From: a plasmid
DNA length: 64,000 nt
Strand: one strand, 5' to 3'
Assembly: GCF_054482595.1 (NCBI RefSeq)
Contig: NZ_JBTHVH010000001.1
Positions 2,477 to 50,730 of the stretch are shown here, piece by piece. Within the stretch, counting starts at the first letter, position 1; each line of letters starts with the position of its first letter. The translations under genes were made by a program, and so were the position numbers. A model generated the notes under the pieces. It did no database searches, was not told the DNA's origin, and saw only the letters and a list, made by a program, of their open reading frames with translations.

Positions 2477-3516
2477 AAAAACCTCTCGTCACCCGTAATG
2501 ACATAGCCGAAGCGATCGCACTGCATACTGCCTGTATGCCGACACGGGAGATCCCCGGCGCAATTGCCAACTATTTCATGATAACCAGACGTTTTTATAC
2601 CCGAACAGATAAGGCTGTGATCAACAGGCTACTGATAGCCGAGATCAGGGATTATTTGATTGAACAAGGACGTCTACGTTACGCAACGGTGGCAGCAGAA
2701 ATGAGAAAGGAGGCACATAGAATGACCAGTAATAATTTGAATGTTAAAAAACCAGCATCTGTTGCTTCAGCTACGCCATCACCAGCTGTGAATGTTATCT
2801 CCAACACTGGAGACACAATCGACAGCCAGACGCTGTTAAAGATGGTCAATGAAGCGCGTAAGTTATGTGGGGAACCAGAGGTTCGGAACAACAAATTCAT
2901 CAAAAAAATACTCGACGAATTAGAAGGTGAGGACGGTTACACAAAAAGTGCAACCGTGCCGCCAGGTGGCGGTACGCCTATGGTTGTCATAACCATGACC
3001 TACAAACAAGCCCTGCGAGTCGCCGCGCGCGAGTCAAAAGCAGTCCGCCGTTCGCTGATCGACAAACTGGAAGAATTGCAGCAGGCAAACTCCCCTGCCC
3101 CATCGATCCCCCAAACATTACCAGACGCTCTACGCCTGGCTGCCGAGTTGGCAGAACAGAAAATGCAGTTGGAACAACAGCTGGTGGCCGCAGCCCCTAA
3201 AGTCGATTTTGCCGACCGGGTATCAGCGGCTAATGGAATCCTGATCGGGAACTTTGCAAAGGTCGTTGGACTTAAGCAAAACGCCCTTTTCTCATGGTTG
3301 CGCCAGAACGGCATTCTCATGGCTTTTGGTGCGCGCAAAAACGTACCGCGCCAGCAGTACATTAACGCCGGGTATTTCACGGTGAAAGAAGTGGTGCTGG
3401 ATGATGAAAATGGCTACCAGATACGGCTGACGCCCCAATTAACGGGTAAAGGCCAGCAGTGGTTAACTCGCAAGCTACTTGATGCTGGTTTGTTAAAACC
3501 AGTAGCAATAGGTTAA
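2473..3516 (+). CDS. ant: antirepressor Ant (C-terminal KilAC-type domain)
   Basis: 347 aa; C-terminal PKVDFADRVS...GNFAKVVGLKQN...YFTVKE motif block typical of phage antirepressors; sits downstream of c4/icd and upstream of kilA as in P1. Confidence 0.75.
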   Translation: MKKPLVTRNDIAEAIALHTACMPTREIPGAIANYFMITRRFYTRTDKAVINRLLIAEIRDYLIEQGRLRYATVAAEMRKEAHRMTSNNLNVKKPASVASATPSPAVNVISNTGDTIDSQTLLKMVNEARKLCGEPEVRNNKFIKKILDELEGEDGYTKSATVPPGGGTPMVVITMTYKQALRVAARESKAVRRSLIDKLEELQQANSPAPSIPQTLPDALRLAAELAEQKMQLEQQLVAAAPKVDFADRVSAANGILIGNFAKVVGLKQNALFSWLRQNGILMAFGARKNVPRQQYINAGYFTVKEVVLDDENGYQIRLTPQLTGKGQQWLTRKLLDAGLLKPVAIG

Positions 3517-16240: not shown

Positions 16241-17124
16241 TATGGATTGCGCTTATGGATCTGGAAGCCGATTTTCCTGCCGTTTTTTATCTCTGAAAAT
16301 TTAAGATATTCAATAGCTTCCAAATCTTTCATGGCTTTTCTGATAACGCTATTTTGCACGCTAACGGATGATTTGAGATTAAGCCTCGCTCTAAGGCGCT
16401 CAATGCTGACAGGTGCCGGGTTGGCGGGTAGAGCCTCAAAGAATGTATACAGTACCTTGGCCGTCTCTTTGCGCCCTAGTTTATCCAGCATCTTCAGCTT
16501 CAGGATTCGCTTATAGTCAACATAGTAAAGTTCAGATAGCTGTTTCTGCGGCTGGATCTCGATAACATCAAGCTCGGTATTCAGGCTGCTATATGCCAAC
16601 AAGTTGACGTTAATGTTATTGAGATGACCTTTTGCCGCCGGGAAGCGGAATTTGACAACTGTCTGCTGAATGCGTGTCAGAGAGTCATCAATACTTTTAC
16701 GGAACGCCTTTGAAAGGCGCTTACGTGGATAGCCGCATCGATCGGCAAACTCGGAGAATGGCAGGGTGATTATGCCGTCATCATCAGGTGCGTAGTCAAA
16801 CAACGCGGAGGTTATGCCCACCCACACCTTAAAATCAGTATCCATATCCAGGCGTGGACCATGAATTTCAATTCCCTCATAGCCTTCCTGCTCAACAATT
16901 TTGAGGCTTGATAGTTCTTCAGTTGCGTTCGTTGTGTTTGTTGTAACTGACGATCCGCGACGTAGCGCCACATTGGTAGATTTTAAGGTTGGCACAAACA
17001 CACCTAAGCGCAACAAAGCGATGGGTTGTATAGTGCTGTTGTTATTGGGCTTCAGGCTGTGGATTTCTCCTGTATTTCCTGCAACTTCTTCAACGCTAAG
17101 GAAGCCTTTACTTTCTTCCGGCAT
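16240..17124 (-). CDS. repA: plasmid replication initiator RepA (iteron-binding), divergent from P1 RepA
   Basis: Flanked by iteron arrays; preferred ATG at 17124 with GGAG Shine-Dalgarno (track start 17160); blocks such as GPRLDMDTDFK and PLALLRLGVFVP resemble P1 RepA. Confidence 0.75.
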   Translation of the reverse strand: MPEESKGFLSVEEVAGNTGEIHSLKPNNNSTIQPIALLRLGVFVPTLKSTNVALRRGSSVTTNTTNATEELSSLKIVEQEGYEGIEIHGPRLDMDTDFKVWVGITSALFDYAPDDDGIITLPFSEFADRCGYPRKRLSKAFRKSIDDSLTRIQQTVVKFRFPAAKGHLNNINVNLLAYSSLNTELDVIEIQPQKQLSELYYVDYKRILKLKMLDKLGRKETAKVLYTFFEALPANPAPVSIERLRARLNLKSSVSVQNSVIRKAMKDLEAIEYLKFSEIKNGRKIGFQIHKRNP

Positions 17125-17164
17125 CACGGTTTCTCCATGTGTGGCGCGGCCTGACGTCAATTTG

Positions 17165-17440
17165 GATGGCTGTTATCAACAGCTGTGAATATTCAGACTC
17201 TAAAATCGCTTACAGTCAATGTTTCTGTCGCGTATAGTCAACAATAAATCGCGTGCAGTCAACAATAAATCGTGCACAGTCAACATAAAATCGCGTATAG
17301 TCAATGTTGATCCCATTTCAGGCCAGTAATGACGCGGCTTACAGCGATCCGGGATCTTCTTTGGATCTTCCTAGGTTCTCTTTAGGATCTGTTTATTGGA
17401 TCTATGCTGTGGATAAGTTGAATAAACCGGCCAACAAAGC
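17165..17440. other. oriR-like plasmid origin: five direct iterons, five GATC-containing heptamers, DnaA box
   Basis: Five repeats of AAATCG(C/T)G(T/C)A(T/C)AGTCAA 17195-17310; GATC sites 17345-17395; TGTGGATAA at 17411-17419. Confidence 0.7.
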
Positions 17441-19654: not shown

Positions 19655-19672
19655 ATTGCTCTAATAAATATT
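19655..19672 (+). promoter_or_regulatory. C1 operator-like site
   Basis: ATTGCTCTAATAAATATT. Confidence 0.6.
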
Positions 19673-19742
19673 GTTTTTTATGTCGTATTTTCGGTACCAT
19701 TCAGCCATCGCCCTTCAATGGGCATTTGTTTGGAGTCGTCAG

Positions 19743-20027
19743 ATGCAGATGGAGCTAATAAGCCGCAAAGAGTTCGATAGCCGTGTAACCAGCGGTGAAC
19801 TCGACAACTTGCAGGCTATCAAGGTGAAAGAAGGCTTTTGCCTCATTGGGAATCAGAGCGGAACAAATCGCGTTTTTATGCTTCGCCGTACGGATTTGAA
19901 GCCATTTGTCTGGAAGAACGAAATTGGTCCCAGCTCATACGCTCAAACGAGGGGGTGCCACAACCTGGCCTTTTTCTACAAAGACGAGCTTTCTGTGGTT
20001 GATATTCAAGGGTTACAACATGTTTAA
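19743..20027 (+). CDS. small protein upstream of hrdC
   Basis: ATG at 19743 with GGAG Shine-Dalgarno; stop overlaps the hrdC start. Confidence 0.4.
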
Positions 20028-20925
20028 GCACTGGAAAAACATTACTATTTATAAACTTTCTCGTGAGGCGGATCTGACCGACTTAGAAGATAAAAAGAAA
20101 ATGATCCTTTTCACACCATGCGGTAGTCAGGATATGGCCAAGTTCGGTTTTGTATCTCCATTTGGTGATAATTCCGAAGTTATCGCTATGCATGGAAATG
20201 GTTTTATCCTTGTTGAAGCAAAGCGCGAAACAAAAATTCTTCCCCCGCCGGTTATCCAGCGAGCTATTCAAGAAAAAATTGAAAAACTTGAGCAAGAACA
20301 AGCGCGTAAACTGAAGAAAACAGAGAAGGACTCCCTGAAAGACGAAGTTCTGCATTCTCTTCTGCCACGGGCTTTTTCAAAGTTTTCTGTTATCCAGGCG
20401 ATCTACGACGGTTCAACTAAACGTATCTATATCAATGCCAGCGCGCGGCAGGCAGAGGATATGCTCGCGCTTATGCGTAAGTCTCTGGGTTCTCTTCCTG
20501 TTGTTCCCCTGAGTGTTGAAAATCCCATTGAATTAACGCTGACCGACTGGGTACGTGATGGTAGTGCTCCACAGGGATTTCAAATGGGGGATGCGGCAGA
20601 ACTTAAGGCAGTGCTTGAGGATGGCGGTATTGCCCGAGTGAAAAAGCAGGATTTGGGAAGCGATGAAATTTCCACACACCTGGAAGCTGGCAAGCTCGTT
20701 ACTAAGTTGGCACTCGACTGGCAGAACCGCATTAAATTTACACTGGACCATAACTTCAGCCTTACCAGCGTCAAATTTGCGGATGAATTGCTTGAGCAGA
20801 ACTCTGATATTGATAGTGAAGATGTTGCGCAGCGACTGGACGCAGATTTCTTCCTGTTGACCAGTGAAATTTCGTGCCTGGTTGATGCTCTGGTAAATGC
20901 CCTTGGTGGAGAGGCTAAGCAGTGA
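20020..20925 (+). CDS. hrdC: RdgC-like recombination-associated protein
   Basis: 302 aa starting [16 protein letters not shown], resembling the RdgC N-terminus. Confidence 0.7.
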
Positions 20926-23186
20926 AAGAGCTGTGCTATGGATCTGTTTGCAGTGGAATTGAAGCCGCGAGTATTGCCTGGGAACCGTTGGGTATGCGTC
21001 CGGCGTGGTTTGCTGAAATCGAGCCTTTTCCATCTGCCGTTCTTGCGCACCGCTGGCCCCATGTCGCCAACCTTGGCGACATGACAAAACTTGCCAAAAA
21101 AGTCCTGGCTGAGGAAATCGAATCCCCTGATGTGCTCGTCGGGGGTACGCCTTGTCAGGCATTCAGTATCGCGGGCTTACGTGGTGGGCTTGATGATGAA
21201 CGCGGCGCGCTAACTTTGAAGTATGTGGAGCTTGCAAATGCAATTGACGACAAACGGTCTGAGTCCTTCCTCAAACCGACAGTTATCGTCTGGGAAAATG
21301 TCCCAGGAGTCCTGTCATCGGCAGATAACGCCTTCGGATGTTTCCTTGCCGGATTGGCTGGAGAAGATGCGCCATTCGAACCAGGTGATCGACCTGAATC
21401 AGGAAAAAGTAACTCGTTCTGGCGGTGGGATGTCAAAACCGGTTGCCATGCTCCAAAGTGGCCGCAGTGTGGTTGTATTTATGGACCGCAGCGAAAGGTG
21501 GCCTGGAGAATCCTTGATGCCCAATACTTCGGAGTGGCACAACGACGCCGACGCGTGTTTGTTGTCGCAAGTGCTCGAACAGACCTCGATCCCGCAACGG
21601 TACTTTTTGAGTTCGAAGGCGTGCGCCGGAATATTGCGCCGAGCCGAAAAAAGAAGGAAATCGCTTCCGCCATTATTGCAAATGGCGCTGCAATCAGTGG
21701 CGAAAGCCTAAATCCATGCCTACACGCTGACATGCCACCCGGTATGAAATCGACGAAAGCCGTAAACGCTTTCAGGATGGCAGCATTTGGGGAATATATT
21801 GACGATGAAACCGCATCGACAGTAAAGGCAAGAGATTTTAAAGATGCCACTGACCTTGCCGTTTTTAGCAGCACAGGAGCAGGTTTTTGGTCAGAAGGGC
21901 ATGGTACATTGCGGGCACGTGAGCAAGAAAGCCATGAGCATCTTGTTACATTGGCTTTTCCTGAGCGTATGAGCGGTACACAACATGCTGCAACTAAGAA
22001 TACTTCACCATCTCTAATGGCTAAAAATCCAACAGCTGTTTGCTATGAAGTAAGAAACGCAGAAGTAGCTGTCCGCCGTCTTACCCCTGTCGAATGTGAA
22101 AGGCTGCAAGGTTTTCCTGATGGGCATACGTTGATCCCGACGGAAAAGCGTAAAAAAGTTAATTCAGATGAACTGGCATATCTTCGCAATCACTATCCAG
22201 ATTTAAGCGAAGAAGAGGCCGCGATGCTTGCAGCTGACGGACCGCGTTACAAAGCGATCGGCAATAGTATGGCAATACCAGTAATGCGCTGGATTGGCGA
22301 TCGGATTACTAAGGCCGTATGTCGGCAGAAAGAAGGAAGTGAAACAAAAGAGCGAAAAGTTAAACCAGCGGCAGAATTCGAACGGTCCATATTCAAATGG
22401 GCTGGTGGAAAATTTGGTGTTCTGGAACAAATCTTTCGCTATTTGCCAGAAGGGAAGCGCCTGATTGAACCTTTCGTTGGTGGCGGAGCTGTCTTCATGA
22501 ATGCCGGATACCAGGAAAATCTGCTAAATGATGTGAATGCTGACCTGATTAACTTTTACAAGACTCTGCAACGCGAGGCGAATTCACTTATCACTCTGGC
22601 ACATCGTTTCTTCCAGGACTACAACACACAGGAAGGATACCTGGCAGTACGGAATGCGTTTAACAAACAAGTCTATGATGATTTACATCGCGCAGCGGCG
22701 TTTTTGTTCCTGAACCGACATTGTTTTAACGGATTGACGCGTTACAACCAGGCCGGTGAGTTCAATGTCGGTTATGGGAAGTATAAAACTCCGTATTTCC
22801 CATTACAGGAGATGGAAGCCTTCCTCGGTGCGGAAGGGCGGTCTGAGTTTGTATGCGGTGATTTTGCAGCGGTGATTGAAGCTGCCGGAGAAGGAGATGT
22901 TATCTTTTGCGATCCGCCGTATGAACCGCTTCCAAATACAGAGGGATTCACGAACTATTCCGGTCATGACTTTAAGTTTGAAGAGCAAAAACGCCTGGTG
23001 TCTCTGTTGACGGATGCTCATCGTCGAGGTGCAAAGGTTCTCATTACTAACAGTGGCGCGCCAAACATCAGAGAGCTTTATCATGACAGTGGCTTCAGAG
23101 TGGAACCTCTTTTTGCCAGACGTTCTGTGTCTTGTAAGGGGGACACTCGAGGTGTAGCTCATGACGTTTTGGGCATATTGCTCTAA
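20922..23186 (+). CDS. dmt: fused DNA methyltransferase: N-terminal C5-cytosine MTase-like, C-terminal Dam-like N6-adenine MTase
   Basis: 754 aa; [11 protein letters not shown] and ENVPG motifs, then KWAGGK and DPPY motifs. Confidence 0.8.
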
Positions 23187-23204
23187 TAAATTTATTAGTG
23201 TAAT
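23177..23204. promoter_or_regulatory. overlapping pair of C1 operator-like sites in opposite orientation
   Basis: ATTGCTCTAATAAATTT overlapping AAATTTATTAGTGTAAT. Confidence 0.6.
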
Positions 23205-23366
23205 ATCGCCCCAATGAATCGTGATTTATAGAGCGATTTAGCTGTTAGCCGCGACAGGCGCGGCGGTAAGCATGGCTGGGCCTAGTCCTCCCAGACAAAC
23301 CACCGAGTTGCCAGGTTGACCATGCGCCTAAGTGGCAACGCCGAAGTGCGTTACGAGCTTCCAGTT

Positions 23367-23392
23367 TGCCCATCTTCGGGTGGGCGTTTTTT
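23367..23392 (+). terminator. rho-independent terminator
   Basis: GCCCATC-TTCG-GGTGGGC followed by GTTTTTT. Confidence 0.6.
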
Positions 23393-23858
23393 CAGGGTTT
23401 TCGTCATGGTTAGCGACTTTGCGGCGGTTTAGAAACTGACCATTAAAGTAAATGCAAACGATGATCTGATGATGGTAGCGGCCTAAGAAACCAGATGCCA
23501 CGGGGTATGAGTCGTCCCCCGTCAAAAAAATCGACCGCAGAGTGTCCCCGTCTGTGTATTAGGGAACGGGGAGGCACAACAGGTAAGGGCGCTGGTGTGA
23601 TTAACCAGATGAACGAGAAGGGGCCATCTGTTGGTCAGCGTCCTTTCCTGTTGCGTTTTCTTTTCAGCGTAACAGCGGTGCTTAACAGCACTTTGGGTAC
23701 AGTTCCACGAATTTACGGGTATATCCCGTCATGCTGAAGGCGCTAATCACGCTGGAAGCCAGGGTTGTGCATCCCCTGTTACCGAATTGCAGCCAGGGCG
23801 CGGTGCGCCGAAAAGCATACGGAGGTGGAAGCCCTCGCCGGAGACGTACCCGGCAAGT

Positions 23859-49536: not shown

Positions 49537-50730
49537 GTGACCTGGGACGATCACAAGAAGAATTTTGCTCGCCTGGCGCGAGATGGTGGTTACACCATCG
49601 CACAGTATGCCGCCGAGTTTAATCTTAACCCTAATACTGCACGTCGTTATCTCCGTGCCTTCAAAGAAGACACCAGGACAGCGGACAGCCGCAAGCCAAA
49701 TAAGCCAGTCAGGAAGCCACTAAAAAGCATGATCATTGATCACTCTAATGATCAACATGCAGGTGATCACATTGCGGCTGAAATAGCGGAAAAACAAAGG
49801 GTTAATGCCGTTGTCAGTGCCGCAGTCGAGAATGCGAAGCGCCAAAATAAGCGCATAAATGATCGTTCTGATGATCATGACGTGATCACCCGCGCCCACC
49901 GGACCTTACGTGATCGCCTGGAACGCGACACCCTGGATGATGATGGTGAACGCTTTGAATTCGAAGCTGGCGATTACCTGATAGATAACGTTGAAGCGCG
50001 GAAGGCCGCTCGCGCTATGTTGCGTCGGTCCGGGGCCGATGTTCTGGAAACCACTCTTCTGGAAAAGTCTCTTTCTCATCTCCTTATGCTGGAGAACGCC
50101 AGGGATACGTGTATTCGTCTGGTGCAGGAAATGCGCGATCAGCAAAAAGACGATGATGAAGGGACTCCGCCTGAATATCGTATCGCGAGCATGCTAAACA
50201 GCTGTTCCGCGCAGATAAGCAGCCTGATCAACACCATTTACAGCATCCGGAATAACTATCGAAAAGAAAGCCGGGAGGCGGAAAAGCACGCTTTATCTAT
50301 GGGGCAAGCTGGCATTGTTAAGCTGGCATACGAACGAAAGCGTGAAAATAACTGGTCAGTGCTGGAAGCAGCTGAATTCATCGAGGCGCATGGCGGAAAA
50401 GTGCCGCCCCTGATGCTGGAGCAAATCAAAGCCGATCTGCGTGCTCCTAAGACCAATACCGATGATGAGGAAAGGCAAACAGCCGTCGGTGGCCCTTCTC
50501 TTGAAGATCTGGACAAAGTTGCGCGAGAACGGGCCGCCAACCGCCGCGCCGATGCCGCATTGTGGATTGAGCAGCGTAGGGAAGAAATCGCCGATATCGT
50601 TGATACAGGCGGTTATGGAGATGTTGATACTGAAGGTGCATCAAACGACCCATGGCTGGAACAAGACCTGGACGAAGACGAGGAGGAAGACGAAGAAGTT
50701 ACCCGCAAGCTATACGGGGATGATGATTAA
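49537..50730 (+). CDS. pacA: terminase small subunit PacA (pac site embedded)
   Basis: 397 aa, GTG start; contains the hexamer cluster; acidic C-terminus. Confidence 0.8.
49725..49900 (+). other. pac: pac packaging site: two clusters of TGATCA/G hexamers carrying Dam GATC sites
   Basis: ATGATCATTGATCACTCTAATGATCAACATGCAGGTGATCAC and TGATCGTTCTGATGATCATGACGTGATCACC. Confidence 0.8.

Follow-up and report, generated by a model that had tools for sequence, protein, structure and literature searches.

Introduction

The best described relative of the locus analysed here is dmt of phage P1 (gene earlier named P1 dam). Its product (AAQ14041, GenBank AF234172) is annotated in the GenBank P1 record as a bifunctional methyltransferase (MTase) acting on adenine in GATC and 'perhaps' on cytosine at C5. 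PMC12707154 states that pac has to be methylated at GATC in P1 and that the phage cannot do without dmt in Dam- hosts; PMC11437467 and PMC7253447 agree on this Dam/pac role of P1 dmt. Only the Dam/pac role turned up in the literature that we searched, in which neither a measured C5 activity of Dmt nor a P1 methylome was found.

Each half of such a protein can also be set beside enzymes of a single type: E. coli Dam and DpnM for the adenine-specific half, and M.HhaI and M.HaeIII for the cytosine-specific half. The Bacillus phages SPR, phi3T and rho11s carry multispecific orphan C5-MTases, which have a conserved core, modular and exchangeable target-recognition (TRD) segments and an anti-restriction role. 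Multispecific Bacillus phage C5-MTases are also mentioned in PMC12707154.

Identity and organization of the dmt locus

The DNA stretch that was analysed as a whole (the window) comprises 64,000 nucleotides of a plasmid. At 20922-23186 on the plus strand the ORF listing gives exactly one open reading frame, which starts with GTG and codes, stop codon included, for 754 aa. A sequence-only reading of the window had proposed that a single 754-aa polypeptide fuses a C5-cytosine-type and a Dam-type MTase, with PCQ, ENV, KWAGGK and DPPY motifs in one frame. This proposal holds: the motif positions taken from the translation all lie in the one frame, and Pfam profiles place PF00145 (E=2.5e-36, 126.2 bits, cut-off 22) before PF02086 (E=1.6e-56, 192.3 bits), in agreement with the deposited P1 Dmt annotation.

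The gene is 99.2% identical in nucleotides to P1 dmt, and 746 of the 754 residues of the product are the same as in P1 Dmt, which has the same length; the remaining eight are substitutions. In both elements dmt occupies the same place in the same operon, the GTG start overlaps the end of hrdC and the stop codon overlaps Op72ab. In the window the first overlap reads GTGA, the hrdC stop codon being included, and a GGAGAGG Shine-Dalgarno sequence lies about 8 nt upstream of dmt. The neighbours (Op68, uhr, hrdC, dmt, Op72ab, tRNA-Asn and tRNA-Thr) are shared by the window and P1, and near-identity together with this synteny identifies the product as the orthologue of P1 Dmt. Judged from its sequence, the locus is dmt of a P1-family (Punavirus) phage-plasmid, a gene already known; the dual-methyltransferase finding is likewise not new, because GenBank annotates P1 Dmt as bifunctional. 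The fused C5-Dam architecture is catalogued as phrog_116 and occurs in at least eight separate 50%-identity clusters, and dmt is carried by 498 plasmid records. The calculated size of full-length Dmt, from 754 aa, is about 85 kDa.

The replicon of the window is pO111/SJ46-like, in contrast to the repA arrangement of P1. A GATC cluster at 17.3 kb was considered as a P1 oriR and rejected, as it lies upstream of a minus-strand Rep3-type repA of this pO111/SJ46-like replicon.

Upstream of dmt, the C1 operator Odmt (former Op68; 19655-19671, plus strand; ATTGCTCTAATAAATAT) has one mismatch to the C1 consensus and is annotated in P1 as the operator of uhr-hrdC-dmt. The promoter Pdmt, transferred from P1 Odmt/Pdmt (65145-65190) with an offset of 45490, has its -35 at 19671-19676 and its -10 at 19695-19700. 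The first gene of the operon, uhr (19743-20027, plus strand, 94 aa), follows the P1 annotation and matches phrog_2213, with no Pfam match. It is followed by hrdC (20020-20925, plus strand), an RdgC-family recombination-associated gene in the P1 annotation and by its product's match to PF04381 (E=5.6e-98).

The sequence-only reading had also placed a pair of C1 operators at the 3' end of dmt. The pair is there and is annotated in the P1 record as Obana/Obanb, formerly Op72ab: Op72a (23177-23193, plus strand; ATTGCTCTAATAAATTT) matches the consensus with 0 mismatches and overlaps the dmt stop codon, and its inverted partner Op72b (23188-23204, minus strand) has two. Together they form the bivalent operator Obanab (23177-23204), which also overlaps the promoters P1ban and P2ban. 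The site scan found 15 operator-like C1 sites within three mismatches in the window, against 0.28 expected by chance. Going by the P1 annotation, Op72ab controls the downstream ban operon and not dmt, whose own control region is Op68/Pdmt, some 1.25 kb further upstream. A simple sigma-70 scan missed the annotated Pdmt and Pban, so the promoter assignments rest on the P1 annotation.

Downstream of dmt, an Rfam search at the gathering threshold found tRNAs only and no DicF. No nuclease gene adjoins dmt, the neighbours being HrdC, Uhr and tRNA genes; with no restriction endonuclease beside it, dmt codes for an orphan MTase, unlike M.HhaI and M.HaeIII, which have a partner endonuclease.

The Dam-type half and the pac site

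The Dam-type (D12 class, alpha) N6-adenine MTase domain (22386-23183, plus strand) is preceded by a Lys/Glu-rich interdomain linker of approximately residues 465-488 (22314-22385, plus strand), which lies between the Pfam envelopes and falls below pLDDT 50 at aa 472-481. The domain has the motif order of the alpha class: the KWAGGK loop (aa 492-497; 22395-22412, plus strand), the FxGxG AdoMet motif as FVGGGAVF (aa 518-525) and DPPY (aa 664-667; 22911-22922, plus strand), the last being present in 121/121 homologs. It scores 249.1 bits with the NCBIfam dam subfamily profile TIGR00571 (cut-off 114.85), can be aligned over its full length with E. coli Dam (2g1p, E=1.8e-58) and DpnM, and in the predicted model superposes at TM 0.90 on 4rtn and 2g1p (Foldseek). 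The alignment shows that K9, N120, L122, R124 and Y138 (E. coli Dam numbering), which we take to be the GATC-contact residues of E. coli Dam, are kept; the substitutions in the recognition hairpin are Y119F, P134G and R137K. Dmt thus has in common with E. coli Dam and DpnM (2g1p, 4rtn, 2dpm) the fold, KWAGGK, FxGxG, DPPY and most GATC-contact residues, and is unlike them in that its Dam module is fused to a C5 module. With the host-Dam equivalog profile NF008152 it reaches 245.2 bits against a cut-off of 441. By these comparisons the Dam half is classified as a member of the Dam subfamily and not as a host dam gene.

The candidate cis substrate of this half, the pac site, was located inside pacA (49730-49890, plus strand) by a scan for GATC clusters and by its match to P1. 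It consists of four TGATCA hexamers (at 49730, 49737, 49749 and 49764) and three TGATCR hexamers (at 49860, 49872 and 49883), and the region is 98.7% identical to P1 90642-90942, which bears the annotated pac cleavage site. The sequence-only reading had suggested that dual methylation would service the GATC methylation of pac; PMC12707154 and PMC11437467 give this role of the Dam half as established for P1, and the window itself contains the site.

The C5-cytosine methyltransferase half

The N-terminal half is made up of a catalytic core with motifs I-VIII (aa 1-242; 20922-21647, plus strand), a TRD block and a segment with motifs IX and X (22070-22313, plus strand), the latter two separated by an insertion of about 35 aa. 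The delimitation of the core and of the last segment is supported by alignment with M.HhaI, homologue conservation and AF2 models, and that of the core also by PF00145 and Foldseek. PCQ of motif IV (aa 77-79; 21150-21158, plus strand) contains the catalytic Cys78, ENV of motif VI is found at aa 125-127 (21294-21302, plus strand) and motif VIII reads QRRRRVF. The order of the motifs is canonical, with the TRD between VIII and IX, and GNSMAIPV aligns to M.HhaI. The NCBIfam profile TIGR00675 of the dcm superfamily matches at 117.6 bits (cut-off 100.65). In the AF2 model the core has pLDDT above 90, and its predicted class I MTase fold is matched by Foldseek with probability 1.00 to M.HhaI, M.HaeIII and DNMT1.

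A set of 121 close homologs has motifs I, II, III, IV, VI, VIII, IX and X with hardly any variation; of these motifs, the catalytic Cys, ENV and QxRxR are kept in 121/121 or nearly so. Across 114 representatives of 45-66% identity the motifs are at least 90% conserved. M.HhaI and M.HaeIII agree with Dmt in the order of the ten motifs and in the place of the TRD, between VIII and IX, and share the PCQ cysteine, ENV, QxRxR and GNS. However, the C5 half of Dmt is only about 15-20% identical to such prokaryotic enzymes, has a phage-type motif I (CSGIEA, where M.HhaI-like enzymes have FxGxG) and has additional sequence inserted between motifs VI-VIII and IX-X. An orthologue of E. coli Dcm was considered and rejected (NF007772, 23.6 bits against a cut-off of 710). 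As the C5 half is not a copy of Dcm, CCWGG specificity cannot be assumed for it.

The catalytic cysteine is also the insertion point of an intein. In 133 of 498 plasmid copies (about 27%) an intein lies exactly at this residue, relatives carrying 1023 bp of intein between codons 77 and 78 (Pro and Cys). The same junction in the window (21152-21153, plus strand) is an empty homing site, GGTACGCCT on its left and TGTCAGGCA on its right, and the product does not belong to the RCS47-type allele, with its Hint + LAGLIDADG insert at Cys78, since GGTP runs uninterrupted into CQAFS. No Dmt intein was reported in the literature that we searched, in which the only methylase inteins found were those of actinophages. 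An intein at this position would be a rare example of one circulating in Enterobacteriaceae.

An exchangeable target-recognition cassette

The TRD block of the window, between motifs VIII and IX (aa 243-383; 21648-22069, plus strand), is of the P1 type and was delimited by blastn breakpoints, which are common to P7 and pEC190329, and by comparison of alleles. At least four TRD alleles exist among dmt relatives. That of the window shows no difference from pE2863-2 over 429 nt (0/429) and is unrelated to the P7 allele (dN 0.90, dS 0.97). P7 Dam (AAQ07538) and the 862-aa plasmid allele (e.g. WP_032333498) have the same Dam half and genome position as dmt of the window, and outside the TRD their framework is about 97% identical in nucleotides. 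By contrast, the P7 TRD is about 59 aa long and unrelated to the P1 type, and that of the 862-aa allele is about 250 aa long and shares only a central block with it, at about 74% nucleotide identity. Such replacement of the TRD implies different cytosine targets. These comparisons identify the TRD block as an exchangeable cassette, swapped at fixed breakpoints among relatives; in some of them, the 710-aa and 992-aa forms, the TRD bears deletions.

In its phage origin, its orphan m5C type, its conserved core and its exchangeable TRD, Dmt resembles the enzymes of SPR, phi3T and rho11s. In contrast to these multispecific enzymes, there is no evidence in Dmt for several tandem TRDs: self-BLAST found no internal repeats in the P1-type and 862-type blocks, which leaves tandem multispecific TRDs unsupported. 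In the AF2 model built from a 114-sequence alignment, residues 238-379 fall below pLDDT 50, so that no specificity can be deduced from structure.

Is the C5 half active?

Compared with P7, RCS47, pE2863 and pPSS10, the C5 core has a dN/dS of 0.116-0.223; that of the Dam half is 0.07-0.15. Over short distances, where the number of differing sites is very small, the ratio carries no information or is high: 1.27 between the C5 cores of the window and the P1 reference, from 5 nt only, and 0.64 in the motif IX-X segment of P7, from 8 nt only. The core is, by these ratios, under purifying selection, though part of this selection might be due to structural support of the fused Dam half and not to catalysis. 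Both sequenced laboratory P1 strains have a tryptophan at position 74, near the catalytic cysteine (WGTPCQ), whereas natural copies have glycine; the window has G74 (GGTPCQ), the family consensus. Another substitution, G64E, is private to the window; in the wider family R, D, E and M are all accepted at this position. An active C5 module in the Dmt of the window is made likely by the purifying selection on the core, the invariance of the motifs and the exchange of TRDs.

The C5 half might nevertheless be catalytically silent, a vestigial or purely structural DNA-binding domain that assists the Dam half, perhaps as its tether to DNA, the protein being functionally Dam only. Its documented function is indeed Dam/pac only, databases label the protein 'Dam family', W74 beside the catalytic loop of the laboratory strains has no known phenotype, and the relatives with TRD deletions would fit. 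A dead enzyme, however, would hardly explain why precisely the TRD is replaced as a cassette; the invariance of the catalytic residues and the core dN/dS of 0.12-0.22 speak against it as well, as does a wider stand-alone family, 55-70% identical in the core, that is without any Dam half. We consider a silent C5 half improbable.

An active C5 half could instead be regulatory or epigenetic, timing replication, packaging or gene expression and not counteracting restriction. Such a role, which the Dam half already has, would suit an orphan MTase coded in a C1-controlled early operon beside replication and recombination genes. Yet an enzyme and its regulatory site should co-evolve and stay conserved, and the TRD is swapped between near-identical elements instead, which fits diversifying selection of the host-range type better; no clustered candidate target is known. 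This alternative, too, has a low probability in our view.

Quite improbable is a fusion that is only genetic, with a Dam-only product made from an internal start or promoter, or by proteolysis of the predicted flexible linker. In its favour are the in-frame Met435, Met450 and Met455 ahead of the Dam domain, LPdam2, a late promoter predicted within the gene in the P7 record, and the relative 673R5, in which separate genes are annotated. But the -22 box of LPdam2 differs at 2/9 positions in the window and P1, the detailed P1 annotation is without such a promoter, and the split in 673R5 coincides with a 2-nt length difference, that is, a frameshift. Moreover, thousands of copies and at least eight divergent clusters retain the single ORF. 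The internal late promoter, predicted in the P7 record only, was accordingly rejected.

Proposed function of Dmt

The preferred reading is a protein of two active modules. Dmt would be one polypeptide in which a flexible linker of roughly 20 aa connects two independent S-adenosylmethionine-dependent MTase modules. Its gene, the last of uhr-hrdC-dmt, would be silenced by C1 at Op68 in the prophage and switched on early in lytic growth, as in the P1 annotation, conserved here. The C-terminal module probably methylates adenine in GATC, as the literature describes for P1 and as 99% identity suggests here. Its key job would be to keep the seven GATC-containing pac hexamers methylated, so that pacase cuts and headful packaging starts; by methylating its own pac through Dmt, the phage would be independent of host Dam.

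The N-terminal module would most likely methylate phage DNA at a short sequence, as an active orphan m5C enzyme. We infer that the C5 half would thereby shield this DNA in new hosts against Type II restriction, a protection that the sequence-only reading had ascribed to dual methylation, and that a swap of the TRD cassette would reset its specificity in relatives. The operator pair at the 3' end is that of the ban operon, the transcription unit that follows dmt. The overall account, namely a P1-family dmt with two MTase modules, the Dam module servicing pac, the C5 module a likely active orphan and the 3' operators those of ban, appears to us highly probable.

A bolder proposal is tentative, and we think it rather doubtful as a whole: in natural P1-family elements, the window included, the C5 half would be an active m5C methylase and have its specificity reset by TRD swaps of 0.2-0.75 kb at fixed breakpoints, an anti-restriction 'specificity shuffling', and G74W next to the catalytic cysteine would cripple the activity in laboratory P1, which would have let it go unnoticed for decades.

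Significance

As the re-identification of a textbook gene, the finding of dmt in itself changes nothing. P1-like phage-plasmids do, however, commonly carry resistance genes in Escherichia, Salmonella and Klebsiella, and must evade restriction in order to enter new hosts. Should the C5 half be active and the TRD set its target, laboratory P1, with its W74, would be a poor model for the restriction-evasion trait, and typing of TRD alleles would predict the restriction barriers that each element crosses.

Organization of dmt

The dmt gene occupies window 20922–23186 on the + strand and encodes one polypeptide of 754 aa, exactly as the sequence-only reading had proposed. The four motifs said to share a reading frame, PCQ (aa 77–79, 21150–21158), ENV (aa 125–127, 21294–21302), KWAGGK (aa 492–497, 22395–22412) and DPPY (aa 664–667, 22911–22922), all lie in that of dmt on the + strand. 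The start codon, GTG, overlaps the stop codon of the preceding gene (GTGA) and follows a ribosome-binding site, GGAGAGG, ~8 nt 5' of it. The earliest in-frame ATG is codon 25; since C5 motif I (aa 8–17) lies upstream of it and is kept in 117/121 homologs, the GTG start is right. Matches to PF00145 (C5 cytosine methylase, E=2.5e-36) and PF02086 (D12 N6-adenine methylase, E=1.6e-56), together with NCBIfam dcm superfamily and dam subfamily models, both above curated cut-offs, bear out the proposed fusion of a C5-cytosine-type and a Dam-type methyltransferase. The observation is thus confirmed and its interpretation supported.

This gene is already known. Its DNA is 99.2% identical to that of phage P1 dmt (746/754 residues of the proteins in common), and because the P1 GenBank record already annotates a 'bifunctional DNA methyltransferase', acting on N6 adenine in GATC and 'perhaps' on C5 cytosine, our finding is a re-discovery. 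The record of the relative P7 describes its Dam in the same way.

The order around dmt is also that of P1: Op68/Odmt (a C1 operator site, 19655–19671), Pdmt, uhr (19743–20027), hrdC (20020–20925; RdgC family, E=5.6e-98), dmt, Op72ab with P1ban/P2ban, a dicF-like region, tRNA-Asn and tRNA-Thr. No endonuclease gene adjoins dmt, which is therefore an orphan methylase. Uhr, of 'unknown function' in the P1 record, has no Pfam match and matches phrog_2213 (E=7.9e-64), labelled nucleoside triphosphate pyrophosphohydrolase, a label that may simply be inherited within PHROG. The dicF-like region annotated in P1 corresponds to window 23301–23402, which scores below the gathering score of Rfam DicF and is closed by a strong terminator-like hairpin (23364–23386) and a T-run, ~180 nt 3' of dmt.

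The C1 operator pair expected at the 3' end of dmt was found there. The consensus ATTGCTCTAATAAATTT occurs without mismatch at 23177–23193 (+), overlapping the dmt stop codon, and pairs with an inverted partner at 23188–23204 (−); with up to 3 mismatches allowed, the window holds 15 such sites where chance would give 0.28. Because the neighbourhood matches that of P1, with Op68 before uhr-hrdC-dmt and Op72ab after them, the pair serves as control region for the ban operon that follows (Op72ab, P1ban/P2ban), and dmt itself would be repressed from Op68, ~1.25 kb upstream.

The Dam half and GATC methylation

Over their full length, residues 489–754 align with E. coli Dam (E=1.8e-58) and with DpnM (E=2e-44), and the predicted structure superimposes on E. 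coli Dam–DNA complexes with a TM of 0.90. Among the E. coli Dam residues with roles in GATC contact, K9, N120, L122, R124 and Y138 have conserved counterparts in the alignment, while Y119F, P134G and R137K are substitutions. The Dam half is not the host dam equivalog itself (NF008152, 245 bits against a cut-off of 441).

That this half services GATC methylation of the pac site agrees both with what is known of P1, in which packaging needs pac GATC methylation and dmt is essential in Dam- hosts (reviews PMC12707154, PMC11437467, PMC7253447), and with the pac hexamers of the window. These, four TGATCA and three TGATCR in the canonical 4+3 arrangement, lie at 49730–49890 inside pacA, in a stretch 98.7% identical to P1 90642–90942 inside pacA, which bears the annotated pac cleavage site. 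An eighth hexamer, TGATCG, is found nearby at 49911.

Two further GATC features were seen. The GAT codon of DPPY and the following base form a GATC site (GATCCGCCGTAT, 22911–22914), placing the target of the Dam half on the codons of its own catalytic motif, probably by coincidence. Six GATC sites within ~100 bp (17309–17400), followed by a DnaA-box-like TGTGGATAAG, lie just upstream of a Rep3-family repA (16243–17160, −) of a pO111/SJ46-like replicon, which is unlike the classical repA arrangement of P1. This region is a likely origin of the plasmid, and its methylation, too, would be governed by Dam or Dmt.

An exchangeable target-recognition domain

dmt is present in 498 plasmid records (455 Escherichia, 33 Salmonella and 8 Klebsiella among them), and both Pfam domains are kept in all of the top 120 Dmt protein clusters. 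Lengths fall into classes of 672, 710, 735, 754, 762, 822, 856–862, 960, 992, 1013 and 1095 aa, and alignment places the differences mostly in one block between motifs VIII and IX, where the target-recognition domain (TRD) classically lies. DNA identity of the window gene to P7 (97%) and pEC190329_2 (99%) ends at a common base, 21647, and resumes at 22070–22074, so delimiting an exchangeable cassette with fixed breakpoints (21648–22069). At least four alleles occur among relatives: P1-type (141 aa), P7-type (~59 aa), 862-type (~250 aa) and 822-type. The TRD moves as a cassette between backbones, because the window and pE2863-2 share this block without a single difference over 429 nt although their Dam halves differ at 260 nt, and the P1-type block shows no relationship to the P7-type one (dN 0.90, dS 0.97).

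The C5–Dam fusion, catalogued as phrog_116, is found in no fewer than eight distinct clusters at 50% identity. Stand-alone C5 methyltransferases of the same large family, in which TRD length ranges from ~60 to 410 aa, contain sub-segments of the P1-type TRD at 60–80% identity. Shuffling of the TRD on a conserved core is to be expected if an anti-restriction methylase is selected for host range, and this pattern is the main new argument, an inferential one, for the proposal of the sequence-only reading that methylation would protect against restriction. In phage vB_EcoM-673R5 (501–2763 of the compared sequence), dmt is 2 nt shorter and annotated as three ORFs (C5 methyltransferase, hypothetical protein and Dam); it is either a frameshifted pseudogene or the product of a sequencing error.

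An intein at the catalytic cysteine of relatives

A 1023-bp insert at dmt codon 77|78 is carried by 133/498 plasmid records. In RCS47 (732–1754 of the compared sequence) it encodes a 341-aa class-1 intein placed exactly at the catalytic Cys of PCQ. This intein begins with Cys1, contains block-B TNDH and a pair of LAGLIDADG motifs, and ends in HN; the Cys+1 that comes next is the catalytic Cys of the methylase itself. The intein occurs on both P1-type and P7-type TRD backgrounds, stand-alone C5 methyltransferases of the wider family have inteins at the equivalent site, and the 960-aa form of Dmt is without most of the intein endonuclease region. The site is empty in the window (21152|21153). 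Our literature search found no published report of a Dmt intein in the P1 family.

State of the C5 half

Aligned with M.HhaI, the C5 half has motifs IV, VI, VIII, IX and X in canonical order, and motifs I–III can be recognised in their phage-type forms, CSGIEA, AEIEPF and GDM. For the catalytic core, the predicted structure has pLDDT above 90 and a fold matching M.HhaI, M.HaeIII and DNMT1. The motifs are essentially invariant among 121 close homologs and at least 90% conserved in 114 representatives of 45–66% identity. By the Nei–Gojobori method, dN/dS of the core (aa 2–240) is 0.177 against P7, 0.153 against RCS47, 0.116 against pE2863-2 and 0.223 against pPSS-10_3, values of the Dam half being 0.07–0.15. 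These ratios show purifying selection on the C5 module, which makes a dead domain unlikely. The C5 half is not a copy of Dcm (NF007772, 23.6 bits against a cut-off of 710), and a CCWGG target therefore cannot be assumed. A literature search found no paper measuring Dmt C5 activity; we consider it fairly probable that the C5 half is active. The window has a private G64E change (GGG to GAG, 21111–21113) at a codon that is Gly in nearly all relatives and at which R, D, E and M are tolerated in the wider family.

Both sequenced laboratory P1 strains, AF234172 and AF234173, carry TGG at codon 74 (W74 in V-W-G-T-P-C-Q; 3220–3222 of compared sequence L001). The window has GGG (Gly, 21141–21143), as do P7, RCS47 and 121/121 close homologs at the protein level; the wider family shows only G (105) or A (7), and a 61-nt laboratory-P1 probe has exact matches in 0/353 plasmid copies. 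The window, the close homologs and the probe thus indicate that natural dmt copies carry Gly at 74. W74 lies four residues before the catalytic Cys, immediately before the GTPCQ loop, where a bulky Trp might impair the C5 module of laboratory P1. If it does, negative results from laboratory P1 would not be applicable to the G74 allele of the window.
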